Below, piece after piece: positions 3 to 4,806 of a stretch of 64,000 nucleotides of DNA. Both the position numbers and the translations under genes were made by a program. Below the pieces are notes generated by a model, which did no database searches, was not told the DNA's origin, and saw only the letters and a program-made list of their open reading frames with translations. This DNA comes from Prevotella sp. Lineage in GTDB: Bacteria; Bacteroidota; Bacteroidia; Bacteroidales; Bacteroidaceae. The stretch is from NCBI GenBank assembly GCA_045617365.1, contig JAZLIN010000014.1, forward strand, positions 5,208 through 69,207, given 5' to 3'. The stretch's first letter is position 1. The number at the start of each line of letters is the position of its first letter.

Positions 3-764
3 ATTAGTATTTGTACTAATGGTACTACGGATTACTATATAAACAAGGAATTTCTTAATTCACAGGTCGATATTCAGATTTCTATTGATGGAACTGAAGG
101 TGTACATGACTCTATCAGAGGGAAAAATACATACAAACGAATATTAACAACTATTTCCAAACTTGAAGCGTTGCAAATACCTTATACCGTTTCAAGCGTT
201 GTTAATAGATACAATTCAAATTGCATGAAGGAATTATCTGATATTCTTAGCGGATTGCAAATGATGAAATATTGGAACATCTCATACGAAATGCCATTCG
301 GACATGCTGATTTAAAAGAACTTATGCCGTCTGAGGAATGGAACACCTTCGTTGATGAGATGCTTGATTATGTTTCTTTTAGGATGAAAATAAAAAAAAT
401 GTTCCCCTTTGAACTGTTCGATAAGAATAAAGACAAGTTAGATGAACTTTTCAAAGACCGTAAATGTTCTAATTGTGGAAGTGGACGCGACAAAATCTAT
501 ATTTACCCAGATTTAAACGTTTATCCATGCACATGCTTAACAGATTTCTGCATAGGAAATCTACGAGAATCTTCCCTGTATAAAATTATGCGAACTAAAA
601 TGGCACGTACTTTTGCAGACTACAATGTTTTGCAAGAATCTAAATGTCAGAGCTGTGAATATCTTAAGTATTGCAATGGAGGATGTATTGGTATGTCTTA
701 TCACTTTTTCAAGAAACTTGGATATGGTGATATTCGTTGTCCAAAATTACGTGATCGCATATGA
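3..764 (+). CDS. Radical SAM/SPASM-domain protein, 5' end outside the window
   Basis: Frame is open from base 3 and reads ICTNG...QISIDGTEGVHDSIRG (rSAM core motifs). C-terminal SPASM Cys pattern: CSNCGSG-IYPDLNVYPC-CQSCEYLKYCNGGC-DIRC. The CxxxCxxC motif would lie upstream of the window. Confidence 0.9.
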   Translation: MSICTNGTTDYYINKEFLNSQVDIQISIDGTEGVHDSIRGKNTYKRILTTISKLEALQIPYTVSSVVNRYNSNCMKELSDILSGLQMMKYWNISYEMPFGHADLKELMPSEEWNTFVDEMLDYVSFRMKIKKMFPFELFDKNKDKLDELFKDRKCSNCGSGRDKIYIYPDLNVYPCTCLTDFCIGNLRESSLYKIMRTKMARTFADYNVLQESKCQSCEYLKYCNGGCIGMSYHFFKKLGYGDIRCPKLRDRI

Positions 765-1639
765 ATATTTTTTACTTTAATGTAACTTACACTTGCAACT
801 CAAATTGCGTGTTTTGTTATTCTCATAATACGATACATTCTGGTTGTAAATTCAACGAGATTAAACCAGAAGAGTTTATCAAGCATCTAGAGTTGAATAA
901 TATTCAGAAAAACGACAGAGTAATAGTGAATGGAGGTGAACCTTTTCTTCATTCAAATATAATCACGTTGCTTAAGTCTTTGCTTGTTTTTCAATGCGAA
1001 GTACTAGTATATACTAACGGAAGATGTTTGAACAATATCGATTTAGGGTTTATGACCGAAAAATACAGATTCGTGATTCCTGTTCATGGTCATAAGAGTT
1101 TGCATGATAAGATAACAAGGTGCAAAGGTAGTTTCGAGGAAATGGCAAAAGGTATCAAACATTTAGGGAAATACAGATGCAAGATAGATATTAAAATAAT
1201 ACTAAATCCTATAATGGTGAGTTCCCAGATAGATTTTGTCAAAACATTACATGATATTGACACTTTAAAATTTAATAATGCTGTACATATTACAAAAATG
1301 GCAGATACGATAATTTCACAAAGGAACAATATTCCTTCTGTAAATAACGAGTCTGCATCAAAATATACAGAACTTTTGTTTAAGCATTTCGCCAACAGAG
1401 GTTTCATAATAAAAGTATTTGATACATGCGTAAAAAGAATCAATGTAACTAAATTCGACAATAAACACATACCACTTCATGTATACTTTAAGGATGCTAA
1501 AACATCATGGCCATTCAAATTTTATACTCCAGAAGATGATTGCAGAATCAATTGTCCCAGCAAAGATTTTTGTCAATCTGCTGTAGGTAATTACACAGTA
1601 CTTGAATATAATGGAGAGTTTTATAAAGGTATAGAATAA
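761..1639 (+). CDS. Radical SAM protein with short C-terminal Cys cluster (twitch/HxsC-like layout)
   Basis: CNSNCVFC (CxxxCxxC), NGGEPFLH, YTNGR, PVHG..HDKITR; C-terminal CRINCPSKDFC; ATGA overlap with the upstream gene. Confidence 0.88.
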   Translation: MNIFYFNVTYTCNSNCVFCYSHNTIHSGCKFNEIKPEEFIKHLELNNIQKNDRVIVNGGEPFLHSNIITLLKSLLVFQCEVLVYTNGRCLNNIDLGFMTEKYRFVIPVHGHKSLHDKITRCKGSFEEMAKGIKHLGKYRCKIDIKIILNPIMVSSQIDFVKTLHDIDTLKFNNAVHITKMADTIISQRNNIPSVNNESASKYTELLFKHFANRGFIIKVFDTCVKRINVTKFDNKHIPLHVYFKDAKTSWPFKFYTPEDDCRINCPSKDFCQSAVGNYTVLEYNGEFYKGIE

Positions 1640-1641
1640 AT

Positions 1642-2394
1642 ATGAATAAAAAGCAGTTGCGAACCTTTTGTGTTCAGTTTTATTATATTGACAAATCACT
1701 TTCTCTAAAAGGAAGTAAGTACTATTATAATTTCAATGAGAAATGTCCTCCTATCGTTTTAGAAGGCAAATCCATTTCTCATGTGTTTGAGTACTCACTC
1801 AATGATTTAAACAAAGTTATCGGTTTTAATTATAGAATGCCACAAAACGCAGATGAACGAACTCTAATATTAAATAAATGCTTAGGCGACCTTACAAGTA
1901 CATACTATGATTTTTCTCGTATGCTTGGAAAACCATTCGAGAACATATCTTCAAGTATAAGATGTATTGATGACTTTATTTGTGGATACTCCTTTTACTT
2001 TTATCCAACTTTTATTTCCAATAGTGGCAAAGTAAAGATGACAGGAATTAATCGTTCTGAGAAATGTTCGTCTTTCTTAAAAGAGTTGAATTCCTATTAT
2101 TTTTATTTAGAGCCACAGTATGAAGAAGAGTTTGAAAAGTTTGCTGACATTTGTTTTGAATTAAGGGGAGTTAGCATCTATTTTGAAGAAAAAAATTTCG
2201 GTTATAACATCTATATAAAATGCTCACAAAAGGAATTAACGTCTTTTTTAGGAGAAAGAACCTTAACCGCAATCCAAGAAGGGATTATTCTTGCATCTAT
2301 GAAAATAAGCAAAGGCAAAATACTAGGCTATAATGTATATTATGCTGGGACACATGCTCGTCCATGCTGTGGATGGGGGGAAGTAATAGACTAA
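1642..2394 (+). CDS. Hypothetical protein, 250 aa, ending in HARPCCGWGEVID
   Basis: Long ORF starting 2 bp after the previous stop, in operon with rSAM genes; no family recognised. Confidence 0.75.
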   Translation: MNKKQLRTFCVQFYYIDKSLSLKGSKYYYNFNEKCPPIVLEGKSISHVFEYSLNDLNKVIGFNYRMPQNADERTLILNKCLGDLTSTYYDFSRMLGKPFENISSSIRCIDDFICGYSFYFYPTFISNSGKVKMTGINRSEKCSSFLKELNSYYFYLEPQYEEEFEKFADICFELRGVSIYFEEKNFGYNIYIKCSQKELTSFLGERTLTAIQEGIILASMKISKGKILGYNVYYAGTHARPCCGWGEVID

Positions 2395-2409
2395 AGAACA
2401 ACGAACAGA

Positions 2410-3525: not shown

Positions 3526-3535
3526 TTCTTATCTT

Positions 3536-3787
3536 ATGGAAGTGTTAATAACAGCAATCAAAGACAATTTATATGTCTTTAAAGCAACTGGTGTTCATAT
3601 CACAGATGTTGAATCCGAATTTATTCATGATGATTTGGTAAATAAGATCAAATCATGGATAAGGAAGAAAAAAAATCAAGATGCTGCTACATATTGTCTC
3701 ACCGAAGAGAATAATAGTATTACAATGCTTGCGATAGTTGGTGAATCTTGTAGTCTTTCAACATTCTATGGTAAAGAGGTATGGTAA
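3536..3787 (+). CDS. Small hypothetical protein (83 aa)
   Basis: ATG at 3536, 10 bp after the rSAM stop, within ORF 3449..3787; no homology recognised. Confidence 0.5.
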   Translation: MEVLITAIKDNLYVFKATGVHITDVESEFIHDDLVNKIKSWIRKKKNQDAATYCLTEENNSITMLAIVGESCSLSTFYGKEVW

Positions 3788-3972
3788 GTTCATTTTACAC
3801 CAAAAGAAATTTTGTATAAATCAAGAATCTTTGGCAATGATAATCTATTAGTTTTGTCTCATGCGATTATGTTCAATGATTTTTGAAAACAGTAAATGAG
3901 AAATATGGACATCCCATATAATCGTTACCGTGATAAAAGCAAATTGAGTTTTATCCTAAAATTTTGATTACA

Positions 3973-4806
3973 ATGGCAAACAATAACGACATGGATCTTG
4001 TCCTTGGTCTTTTTTTGGACAATGACCGATTCACAAATTCGGACTCATATGACCAAGATGATGACGCTTGTAATGATGACGAATATGATTACTCACCTGA
4101 ACCTGATGAAACTGTCCAGACTAACAATTGGGAATCATTCAACGACTATAGTACAAACTCCGAAGAGGGTGACTACTATGATGATGGTGACTACTATGAT
4201 GATGGTGACTATTATGACGACGACGATGATTATGATGATGACGACGATGACTATGACGACGACGATGATTATGATGATGACGATGATGACGACGATGATG
4301 ATGACTATGATGACGACGATGACGATGACTATGATGATGATGACGACGACGATGACTATGATGATGACGACGACGATGACGACGACGATGACGACGATGA
4401 CTATGATGACGACGACGATGACGACGATGACGACGACGATGACTATGATGATGACGACGATGACTATGATGATGACGACGATGACTATGATGATGACGAC
4501 GATAATGACTATGATGACGACGATGATTATGATGATGACGATGACGACGATGATGATGATGATGACGATGACGACGATGAAGATGACGATGAAGATGAAG
4601 AAGATGATGATTGCGATAATTCCGAAAGTAATTCATTCGATGCTTATCATATTACAGACGATTGTATTGCGTGCGGCACATGCATTGATGAGTGTCCAGA
4701 GGAAGCGATATCAGAGGGAGATGTGTTTTATATTAATCCTAATTACTGTGTTGGGTGCGGTACATGTGTCGATGTATGTCCAAATGAGGCTATTATTTTA
4801 GGATGA
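3973..4806 (+). CDS. Asp/Tyr-rich repeat protein fused to a C-terminal 2x[4Fe-4S] ferredoxin
   Basis: Residues from 4642 read AYHITDDCIACGTCIDECPEEAISEGDVFYINPNYCVGCGTCVDVCPNEAI (two CxxCxxCxxxCP motifs, like the Bacteroidota short ferredoxin). They are preceded in frame by ~148 codons of (D)nY repeats and a ~65 aa acidic N-terminus. Confidence 0.85.
   Translation: MANNNDMDLVLGLFLDNDRFTNSDSYDQDDDACNDDEYDYSPEPDETVQTNNWESFNDYSTNSEEGDYYDDGDYYDDGDYYDDDDDYDDDDDDYDDDDDYDDDDDDDDDDDYDDDDDDDYDDDDDDDDYDDDDDDDDDDDDDDYDDDDDDDDDDDDDYDDDDDDYDDDDDDYDDDDDNDYDDDDDYDDDDDDDDDDDDDDDDEDDDEDEEDDDCDNSESNSFDAYHITDDCIACGTCIDECPEEAISEGDVFYINPNYCVGCGTCVDVCPNEAIILG
4168..4611 (+). repeat. In-frame GAY-codon low-complexity tract: 3x GDYYDD, then D5-16 runs separated mostly by single Tyr
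   Basis: Read directly: 444 bp of mixed GAT/GAC codons with interspersed TAT/TAC. Confidence 0.95.

Follow-up and report, generated by a model that had tools for sequence, protein, structure and literature searches.

A putative three-enzyme radical SAM cassette with a short C-W-x-E precursor peptide in Prevotella, and the poly-Asp/Tyr-ferredoxin gene beside it

Radical S-adenosylmethionine (SAM) enzymes, here abbreviated rSAM, require a low-potential reductant and serve as peptide maturases in several described systems. DynA and the triceptide enzymes bond an aromatic ring to the C-beta two residues further along the chain. The mycofactocin and PQQ pathways (MftA/B/C, PqqA/D/E) combine a short precursor with an rSAM/SPASM enzyme, and SynChlorMet (SCM, Haft; ScmC-ScmF) holds several PqqE-like rSAMs in one uncharacterized cassette. 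In the HXS antiphage system (HxsD-HxsB-HxsC-HxsA, TIGR03976-03979), the effector, a protein that keeps phage DNA from entering, is matured by rSAM enzymes, and 99.7% of HXS systems occur in Pseudomonadota (Li et al., Nat Commun 2026, PMC13128918). Here, a 64,000-nucleotide stretch of Prevotella sp. DNA (the window; GCA_045617365.1, contig JAZLIN010000014.1, G000:C14:5208-69207) was examined together with 5.2 kb of upstream flank. It opens with three rSAM genes, rSAM1, rSAM2 and rSAM3 (the trio), which, as judged from their sequences and surroundings, appear to form an undescribed cassette for a ribosome-made peptide that is modified after translation (RiPP). We consider it probable that the block is a RiPP-type cassette of one peptide and three rSAM enzymes, with a 28-aa peptide encoded upstream as the substrate and a ferredoxin fusion as an add-on.

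The following genes of the block lie on the + strand. The window begins inside rSAM1 (1..764; the frame 3..764 covers the last 253 codons of 326 aa; full gene G000:C14:4991-5971). Its start codon is 216 bp before window base 1, and the CX3CX2C motif is therefore outside the window. Next come rSAM2 (761..1639, 292 aa), the open reading frame ORF3 (1642..2394, 250 aa), rSAM3 (2410..3525, 371 aa) and ORF5 (3536..3787, 83 aa), and after a 185-bp gap the gene of a 277-aa protein called here poly-Asp/Tyr-ferredoxin (3973..4806). The G+C content is 0.32-0.33 across the block compared with 0.46-0.53 in the remaining window and 47-52% for the genome. An earlier reading made from the letters alone (the sequence-only reading) had listed three different rSAMs (full SPASM, short twitch-like and degenerate SPASM), two further ORFs and an acidic Tyr-rich gene, all on one strand of an AT-rich block. 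This inventory held, and the conserved Cys patterns described below agree with the three enzyme types. Its caution that another precursor could lie upstream of base 1 proved correct, as a 28-aa ORF was found in the retrieved flank.

This precursor gene (G000:C14:4752-4838, + strand, 455 to 369 bp before window base 1) encodes MKENKQKANRKDCELQSMIACSCWVENP. For comparison, 21 other trio loci and several short or variant ones were collected by exact-protein look-ups and by pattern scans of genomes and metagenomes, and the 400 bp upstream of rSAM1 were translated at every locus. An ORF of 26-39 aa was present 110-240 bp upstream of rSAM1 in every locus with enough upstream DNA. These were the window's genome, L003, L008-L013, L015-L019, L023 and L038 in Bacteroidales, and L026, L028, L029 and L039-L041 (Roseburia, Paraclostridium, Lachnospiraceae) in Firmicutes. 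The peptides read MAEKKANREDCELQSLIACSCWIENP in L003, MSEQEKNREECELQSLIACACWTENP in L008, MTEKNVNREDCDFLSLVACSCWIENP in L010, MSTKEVNKLECELNSIIAMACWIENP in L038 and MDIKKTNIEECEIESVMNCASWNENP in L011; that of Roseburia (L026) ends in SWQDINRAECEDASLFDMCSWGEAN and that of the Paraclostridium type (L028) in SWQELNQAACEEASFNNMGCWKEFD.

The C-terminal 20 residues of the precursors could be aligned without gaps, and the frame N-x3-C-[ED]-x2-S-x6-W-x-E is invariant in two phyla. Counted from the C-terminus, the invariant positions are Asn(-20), Cys(-16), Glu/Asp(-15), Ser(-12), Trp(-5) and Glu(-3), and a further Cys is always found at -6 to -8. In the alignment of the intergenic DNA the conservation peak coincides with the precursor ORF. 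Pairwise differences at codon positions 1, 2 and 3 amount to 303/178/799, which is the pattern left by purifying selection on a translated gene. A short precursor gene beside maturases, conserved along with them, is the generic mark of a RiPP system, and it is seen here in both phyla. No NCBIfam or Pfam model matched the precursor peptides, and a full-text literature search with the peptide core strings found nothing. Between the precursor gene and rSAM1 lie two conserved hairpins (G000:C14:4862-4885 and 4932-4960; 345-322 and 275-247 bp before window base 1). A 12-bp stem, GTTCTCGGG...CCCGAGAAC, is kept in nine Bacteroidales loci with compensatory changes. Hairpins after the precursor gene are common in RiPP operons, and this stem-loop may be an attenuator or a transcript-stabilizing element. 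A more distant cassette variant with four rSAM genes was also observed (L021:5851-10879 and L024), in the order 58-aa precursor with C-W-R-E, three rSAM genes, 265-aa protein and rSAM2 homolog (51% identity).

All three rSAMs begin directly at CX3CX2C and carry conserved auxiliary Cys residues. In rSAM1 the motif is joined by 9-10 conserved C-terminal Cys, which make up a full SPASM domain; its best NCBIfam matches are MftC (90 bits) and DynA (89), then sacti- and ranthipeptide synthases, all far below the cut-offs. The shorter rSAM2 matches Pfam Radical_SAM and is HxsC-like (67.7 bits, cut-off 267.9; next WgkB, 55). It is without SPASM and has four invariant C-terminal Cys (C223, C261, C265 and C271), consistent with the term twitch-like. 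The conserved Cys of rSAM3 (C277, C298, C301, C307 and C329) fit a degenerate SPASM domain, and its nearest relatives are DynA and cyclophane-forming maturases. The best matches are DynA (124 bits, cut-off 450), TIGR04083 (102) and the anaerobic sulfatase maturase (97), and further cyclophane-forming matches are AmcB (74, cut-off 425), YhhB (63, cut-off 445), GrrM/OscB (61, cut-off 310), FxsB and XyeB. All of these scores place rSAM3 outside DynA and the curated cyclophane-forming families. None of the three enzymes belongs to a named family, and no curated model in NCBIfam or Pfam names this RiPP-type peptide-modification system.

The precursors contain candidate sites for such enzymes. Each contains W-x-E, an aromatic-X-X motif as in triceptide precursors. 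Because DynA and the triceptide enzymes crosslink an aromatic residue to the residue at i+2, W-x-E stands out as the candidate target of rSAM3. For thioether formation by a SPASM enzyme, the candidates are the invariant Cys.

In relation to HXS, the cassette shares the predicted joint action of several rSAMs on a ribosomally made substrate, the lack of a dedicated exporter or protease, and a sporadic, island-borne occurrence. Moreover, the best match of rSAM2 is HxsC, which is also SPASM-free, and its SPASM-containing partners resemble HxsB. Nevertheless, the scores fall outside TIGR03977 and TIGR03978: HxsC gives 67.7 bits with rSAM2 against a cut-off of 267.9, and HxsB gives 44.6 with rSAM3 and 37.8 with rSAM1 against 370. 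There are three rSAMs instead of two, the hosts are gut anaerobes, and neither HxsA (His-Xaa-Ser repeats, peptidoglycan-binding domain) nor HxsD was found in 10.5 kb around the cluster. The candidate substrate is a 26-39 aa peptide with a C-W-x-E core. The triceptide, DynA and DarE systems (dynobactin, darobactin) provide the top matches of rSAM3 and a parallel for the invariant W-x-E as a candidate crosslink site; the cassette differs from them in its sub-threshold scores, its degenerate SPASM domain and its two further, obligatorily linked rSAMs, and its precursor is unrelated to theirs.

The several PqqE-like rSAMs recall SynChlorMet, and a ScmC-family P-loop protein (PF27840) follows the trio in the Roseburia and Lachnospiraceae versions only. 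However, ScmE and ScmF score 55-75 bits against a cut-off of 400, no PqqD/ScmD homolog is present, and the window's cluster is without ScmC. With mycofactocin and PQQ the cassette has in common a short precursor with its candidate reactive residues at the extreme C-terminus, an rSAM/SPASM enzyme (MftC is the best match of rSAM1) and the absence of an exporter, which is compatible with an intracellular product. Here too the scores are low (MftC 90 bits vs 265, PqqE 58 vs 381). Unlike those pathways, it has no protein carrying a RiPP recognition element (RRE) and, in the window's cluster, no peptidase or oxidase partner, and it sits in defense-type islands and not beside redox enzymes.

The trio was always contiguous and in constant order, with proteins 41-84% identical to those of the window, while the other genes vary. 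Its hosts in Bacteroidales include Muribaculaceae, Sangeribacter, Candidatus Physcocola equi, Bacteroides sp. 224 and others; in Firmicutes they include Roseburia sp. 831b, Lachnospiraceae bacterium KHCPX20, Paraclostridium bifermentans-type contigs and other contigs. More than 160 homologs of rSAM2 were found in the same two groups. The trio is rare: of 401 Bacteroidales species genomes sampled only the window's own has it, a pattern scan of 185,579 species genomes found it in 4, and the plasmid, phage and IMG/VR collections gave no copy. In Roseburia and Lachnospiraceae (L026:10773-12343, L039:9992-11307 and L040:9900-10802) the ScmC-family protein and an FAD-dependent oxidoreductase follow the trio and ORF3, so that this tailoring set is richer than that of Bacteroidales. 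In a Muribaculaceae lineage (L008, 3240-5234; L012; L013) a 650-aa protein with a citrate-lyase-ligase-like adenylyltransferase C-terminal domain is encoded directly after rSAM3.

The surroundings of the trio loci are typical defense or variable islands rich in toxin–antitoxin genes. The window contains an MNT-type nucleotidyltransferase and a HigB/HigA pair. Other loci are accompanied by an AbiL-like AAA+RloB pair and an integrase (L038), AbiEii and NERD genes (L039), type I restriction HsdR and RecD2 (L040), DNA methylases with an LlaJI-type restriction system (L041), PIN, WYL and insertion sequence elements (L026), and DUF262 (L018). A scan of nine proteins against PADLOC-DB v2 returned only generic pVip matches to the rSAM core (E 1e-12 to 1e-17); ORF3, ORF5, the ferredoxin and the acidic proteins had no match. 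Full-text literature searches for the peptide cores and for rSAM-peptide defense systems gave no description of the cassette. RiPP and bacteriocin clusters also colocalize with defense and exchange genes (PMC12715929), and for that reason the island location alone does not settle a defense role. With HXS as a precedent, a role in phage or mobile-element conflict, or in defense, is conceivable.

ORF3 has no match in Pfam or NCBIfam, and a PDB sequence search with its profile returned nothing. Its relatives number 4 proteins among 5.8 billion clusters and 46 representatives among 1.84 billion, and a metagenome scan with the ORF3 alignment found nothing. A seven-sequence alignment including Lachnospiraceae homologs was used for AlphaFold2 (AF2) modeling. 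The model was of good quality (pLDDT 85, pTM 0.86) and shows five beta-hairpins separated by helices. In a Foldseek search of the PDB, the top 50 matches were all ABBA aromatic prenyltransferases (E to 2e-5, TM 0.5-0.6), among them AmbP3, FamD1, AmbP1, EpzP, NphB-type and DMATS enzymes as well as the peptide prenyltransferases LimF, PagF and DciF. The PT-barrel is defined by ten antiparallel strands in alpha-beta-beta-alpha repeats, and from the five hairpins and the structural matches an ABBA fold is predicted for ORF3. Nevertheless, its sequence belongs to no known prenyltransferase family in Pfam or the PDB, and with 250 aa it is shorter than those enzymes (~300) and forms an orphan family. 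The conserved Trp near the C-terminus of the cassette peptide is also a feature of ComX pheromones, and ComQ/ComX is a functional analog.

In the window type ORF3 lies between rSAM2 and rSAM3; L009, L017 and the Lachnospiraceae loci have it after rSAM3, and L008, L010-L013, L015, L016, L018, L019, L028 and L041 have none. Being variable in position and often absent, it is therefore an optional tailoring gene. Only the Bacteroidales members (window ORF3, L003, L004-L006, L009, P0132 and P0145) are extended by 12 residues, P-C-[CY]-G-W-G-E-x-x-x, a tail missing from the Firmicutes homologs and from the known ABBA prenyltransferases. In the window it reads PCCGWGEVID at the C-terminus (2359..2391, residues 240-250). 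This tail resembles the precursor C-terminus (C-S-W-G-E-A-N in Roseburia) and might represent a second core fused to the protein, or a pseudo-substrate with an autoinhibitory effect.

The poly-Asp/Tyr-ferredoxin contains 143 Asp and 25 Tyr in 277 aa. An N-terminal part of 64 aa (3973-4164) is followed by an acidic tract (4165-4611, residues 65-213) whose 149 residues comprise 122 D, 18 Y, 5 E, 3 G and 1 N, and the C-terminal 55 aa form a 2x[4Fe-4S] ferredoxin domain (4639-4803), all on the + strand. Both CxxCxxCxxxCP motifs are intact, with Fer4 at E 1e-15 and FdxA_fam NF058577 at 63.2 bits (cut-off 65). The domain can be aligned end to end with the standalone, clostridial-type 55-aa housekeeping ferredoxin, of which this genome has a copy on C83 and relatives carry one too. 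It differs from FdxA ferredoxins by its 222-aa N-terminal extension. The ancestral start Met is replaced by Asp and the repeat has no internal start codon; the domain can thus be made only as a fusion, which argues that the fusion is a real protein.

A single relative, partial, was found in 5.8 billion protein clusters. This 200-aa metagenomic protein (P0005; L007:267-869, Logan SRR28408234) matches the window's gene with 94% DNA identity over the ferredoxin domain and 180 bp of 3' flank, but has a different, helical N-terminal domain of 145 aa, a short D/S/Y-rich linker and different neighbor genes. Together the two proteins suggest a family of N-terminally extended ferredoxins with acidic, Tyr-containing linkers. 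The rSAM genes of the window are only 70-74% identical to their nearest relatives compared with 94% for the ferredoxin module, and for this reason the module is taken to have its own history. In the 21 other loci no ferredoxin was found within ~6 kb of the trio. The motif MD[LI][VI]LGLF.D was observed near the N-terminus of the poly-Asp protein (window 3991..4014) and in L023 (~930-960), where a poly-Asp/Arg-Ser-rich reading frame that lies upstream of rSAM1 ends with it; the likeness may be due to chance or to a short docking motif common to both.

All 18 Tyr of the acidic tract stand in DYDD or DYYDD context. The Asp codons of the gene are GAT (74) and GAC (69), and Tandem Repeats Finder resolved the tract into imperfect units of 21-42 bp. 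Because TAT is one substitution from GAT and such units spread by duplication, the Tyr pattern needs no substrate explanation; selection for Tyr in the tract may nevertheless act. Runs of (GAY)8 occur in 52 of the 401 Bacteroidales genomes, and among these the trio is present only in the window's own. Lipoproteins with ~150-200 consecutive Asp (L043, G375:C20; L044, G150:C28) are not near an rSAM trio. The idea that Tyr punctuation is peculiar to the trio system was rejected, since a C1-peptidase-like protein (L045, G062:C302) of the trio-less genome G062 has a similar, 270-aa D/E tail punctuated by Tyr.

About 7 of 10 Bacteroidales cluster types have smaller acidic, Tyr-rich ORFs no more than 1.2 kb from the trio. 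Among these is the acid97 family (97-108 aa, ending in HNEWIEYYEDEDGDYCLDGELSDYI), whose genes lie upstream of the cluster within the same distance. L003, L009 and L017 have it on the opposite strand, L010 and L038 on the same strand, and in L038 it is only 25 bp ahead of the precursor. Its profile matched 0 of 401 Bacteroidales genomes and a single copy, beside the trio, in each of two positive-control genomes. In the window's genome an 81-aa relative (up81, G000:C14:3720-3965, E 0.002) is encoded ~1 kb upstream. A distant acid97 relative of 156 aa (pairwise E 4e-4), ending in DDDDDYDDDDDEEYDDDDDDY, directly follows rSAM3 in L011, and an 86-aa protein with a D9 run lies upstream in L023; poly-Asp tails were seen in two of the small acidic neighbors. 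The acid97 family contains W-I-E, like the precursor, and the ORF3 tail contains W-G-E. Neither Pfam nor NCBIfam matched up81, the acid97 family or the L011 protein, and the AF2 model of acid97 was of low confidence (pLDDT 58.6).

With only 23 ORFs of at least 24% D+E in 3.4 Mb of the genome (one per ~150 kb), two of which flank this cluster, the enrichment of acidic ORFs near the trio is far beyond chance. Nevertheless, they are absent from L018 and L019 (one Bacteroidales type) despite 9-kb flanks on both sides, from the whole genome with L008 and from every Firmicutes cluster. The acidic Tyr-rich proteins are genuine, if optional, companions of the trio in Bacteroidales, and a chaperone, a decoy, a second substrate or an immunity protein are candidate roles. 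The sequence-only reading had taken the acidic repeat protein as the substrate and had asked whether homologous clusters co-occur with a D/Y-rich ORF. Such co-occurrence was found for about 7 of 10 Bacteroidales types and fails in the L018/L019 type and in all Firmicutes. The substrate assignment was not supported, as a conventional 26-39 aa precursor, which the sequence-only reading had itself named as evidence that would refute its model, precedes rSAM1 in every cluster with sufficient flank, the poly-Asp/Tyr-ferredoxin is found in no other cluster, and the 21 other trios have no ferredoxin nearby.

From the computed gene order, conservation, motifs, ORF3 fold and distribution we infer all of the chemistry and the biological role. 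The block would be a horizontally acquired RiPP-type cassette whose conserved core consists of the precursor gene and rSAM1-rSAM2-rSAM3, and the enzymes most likely act on the C-terminal 20 residues of the precursor. On W-x-E, rSAM3 probably forms a three-residue Trp-to-Glu C–C crosslink. Thioether or other crosslinks from Cys are probably formed by rSAM1 and/or rSAM2, the latter with one auxiliary cluster. In some lineages only, ORF3 probably adds a prenyl group. The poly-Asp/Tyr-ferredoxin would be a lineage-specific 3' addition, derived from a duplicate of the housekeeping ferredoxin and an acquired low-complexity acidic extension. Its ferredoxin domain may, as a tentative proposal, supply electrons to the clusters of the three rSAMs; the acidic tract is unlikely to be what they modify.

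Several observations weigh against this RiPP-type reading. Every rSAM family assignment is drawn from sub-threshold similarity, and no recognizable RRE was detected in any of the three rSAMs. Conservation with the trio extends to no PqqD-like protein, leader peptidase or other protease, and to no exporter or ABC transporter; for a secreted RiPP this is unusual. The ferredoxin gene, on the same strand and in the same low-GC island with no detected terminator after rSAM3, could be an integral member of the operon, and acid97, found only beside trios, may be a protein partner or a second substrate. An RRE, a leader peptidase and an exporter are common in RiPP clusters but not obligatory. In view of the missing conserved exporter and protease, the product is as likely to be intracellular, or a signal released by general export, as to be a bacteriocin. 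A view in which the small ORF is a regulatory leader only and the rSAMs act on a non-peptide, either a nucleotide as in viperins or a cofactor, within a small-molecule defense or cofactor pathway, would accommodate these absences as well as the pVip matches, the conserved hairpins after the small ORF and the defense islands. It is very improbable, given that amino-acid conservation of the small ORF spans two phyla and includes an invariant C/S/W/E frame at the extreme C-terminus, that the best family matches of all three enzymes are peptide maturases, and that the pVip matches span the shared rSAM core only.

The poly-Asp/Tyr protein, the acid97-type proteins or both might instead be the rSAM substrates, with Y-D-D and W-I-E as crosslink sites and the fused ferredoxin donating electrons in cis. 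The shared strand and island of the ferredoxin gene, the enrichment of acidic ORFs within 1.2 kb of the trio, the placement of the L011 and L023 proteins, the restriction of acid97 to trio loci and the W-I-E and W-G-E motifs are consistent with this, and there is a precedent in HxsB and HxsC, which mature the repeat protein HxsA (PMC13128918). We regard it as distinctly unlikely. The conserved conventional precursor argues against it, as do the clusters without any acidic protein, the variable position and strand of those present and the occurrence of the ferredoxin in one cluster alone. A BLASTP comparison of the window's poly-Asp protein with the acidic protein of L011 gave no significant match, as composition correction takes away the low-complexity similarity, and homology between them is not demonstrable; Tyr-punctuated poly-Asp also arises in unrelated proteins. 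That the ferredoxin gene has no functional link to the trio and is an independent extended ferredoxin, a chance resident of the same variable island, is rather doubtful but has more in its favor. Its domain and 3' flank recur on another contig with another N-terminus and other neighbors, it is unique among 22 trio loci and set off by the 185-bp gap, and long poly-Asp proteins occur without any trio. Opposed to this are the need of rSAM enzymes for a low-potential reductant, the common strand without a detected upstream terminator and the enrichment of poly-Asp ORFs near trios. A bolder extension of the RiPP-type reading, which we consider unlikely, is that the cassette is a new HXS-like conflict or defense system of gut anaerobes. 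Its effector would be an intracellularly matured C-W-x-E peptide, prenylated in some lineages by the orphan ABBA-fold enzyme. The dedicated acidic proteins of Bacteroidales, including the poly-Asp-ferredoxin, would be specific maturase partners that serve as decoys, as secondary substrates, or as scaffolds for docking or electron delivery.

Other features of the locus were as follows. ORF5 has no relative in any homologous cluster, no Pfam, NCBIfam or PADLOC match and no similarity to the 83-aa neighbor in L003, and may not be a real gene. A simple terminator scan found none between rSAM3 and the ferredoxin gene; downstream of the latter lies a terminator-like hairpin with a T-run (4912..4938, + strand). 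Further downstream, a ~100-bp element (5024..5127) has at least 10 further copies with 77-91% identity on other contigs of the same genome and is a dispersed intergenic repeat. Upstream, a fragment of 52% GC (G000:C14:2376-2849) encodes only the C-terminal part of a patatin-like phospholipase; it is flanked by low-GC genes and may mark the island edge. An Rfam scan of the 10.5-kb locus gave nothing credible.

The cassette is notable for its three obligatorily linked rSAMs, a C-W-x-E precursor shared by two phyla, an orphan partner of predicted ABBA fold with a precursor-like tail, and lineage-restricted acidic partners. If the proposed reading is true, it would represent an uncharacterized family of radical-SAM-modified peptides in gut Bacteroidales, Lachnospiraceae and Clostridia, of very simple make-up, with one 26-39 aa peptide and three enzymes. 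The invariant Cys/Ser/Trp/Glu frame would predict the sites of new crosslinks, and the odd poly-Asp/Tyr-ferredoxin fusion would provide a test case for the recruitment of private reductants by rSAM operons. Following the example of HXS, the rarity of the cassette and its location in islands of restriction-modification, Abi and toxin–antitoxin genes would make the peptide a candidate rSAM-matured effector in conflict with phages or mobile elements.

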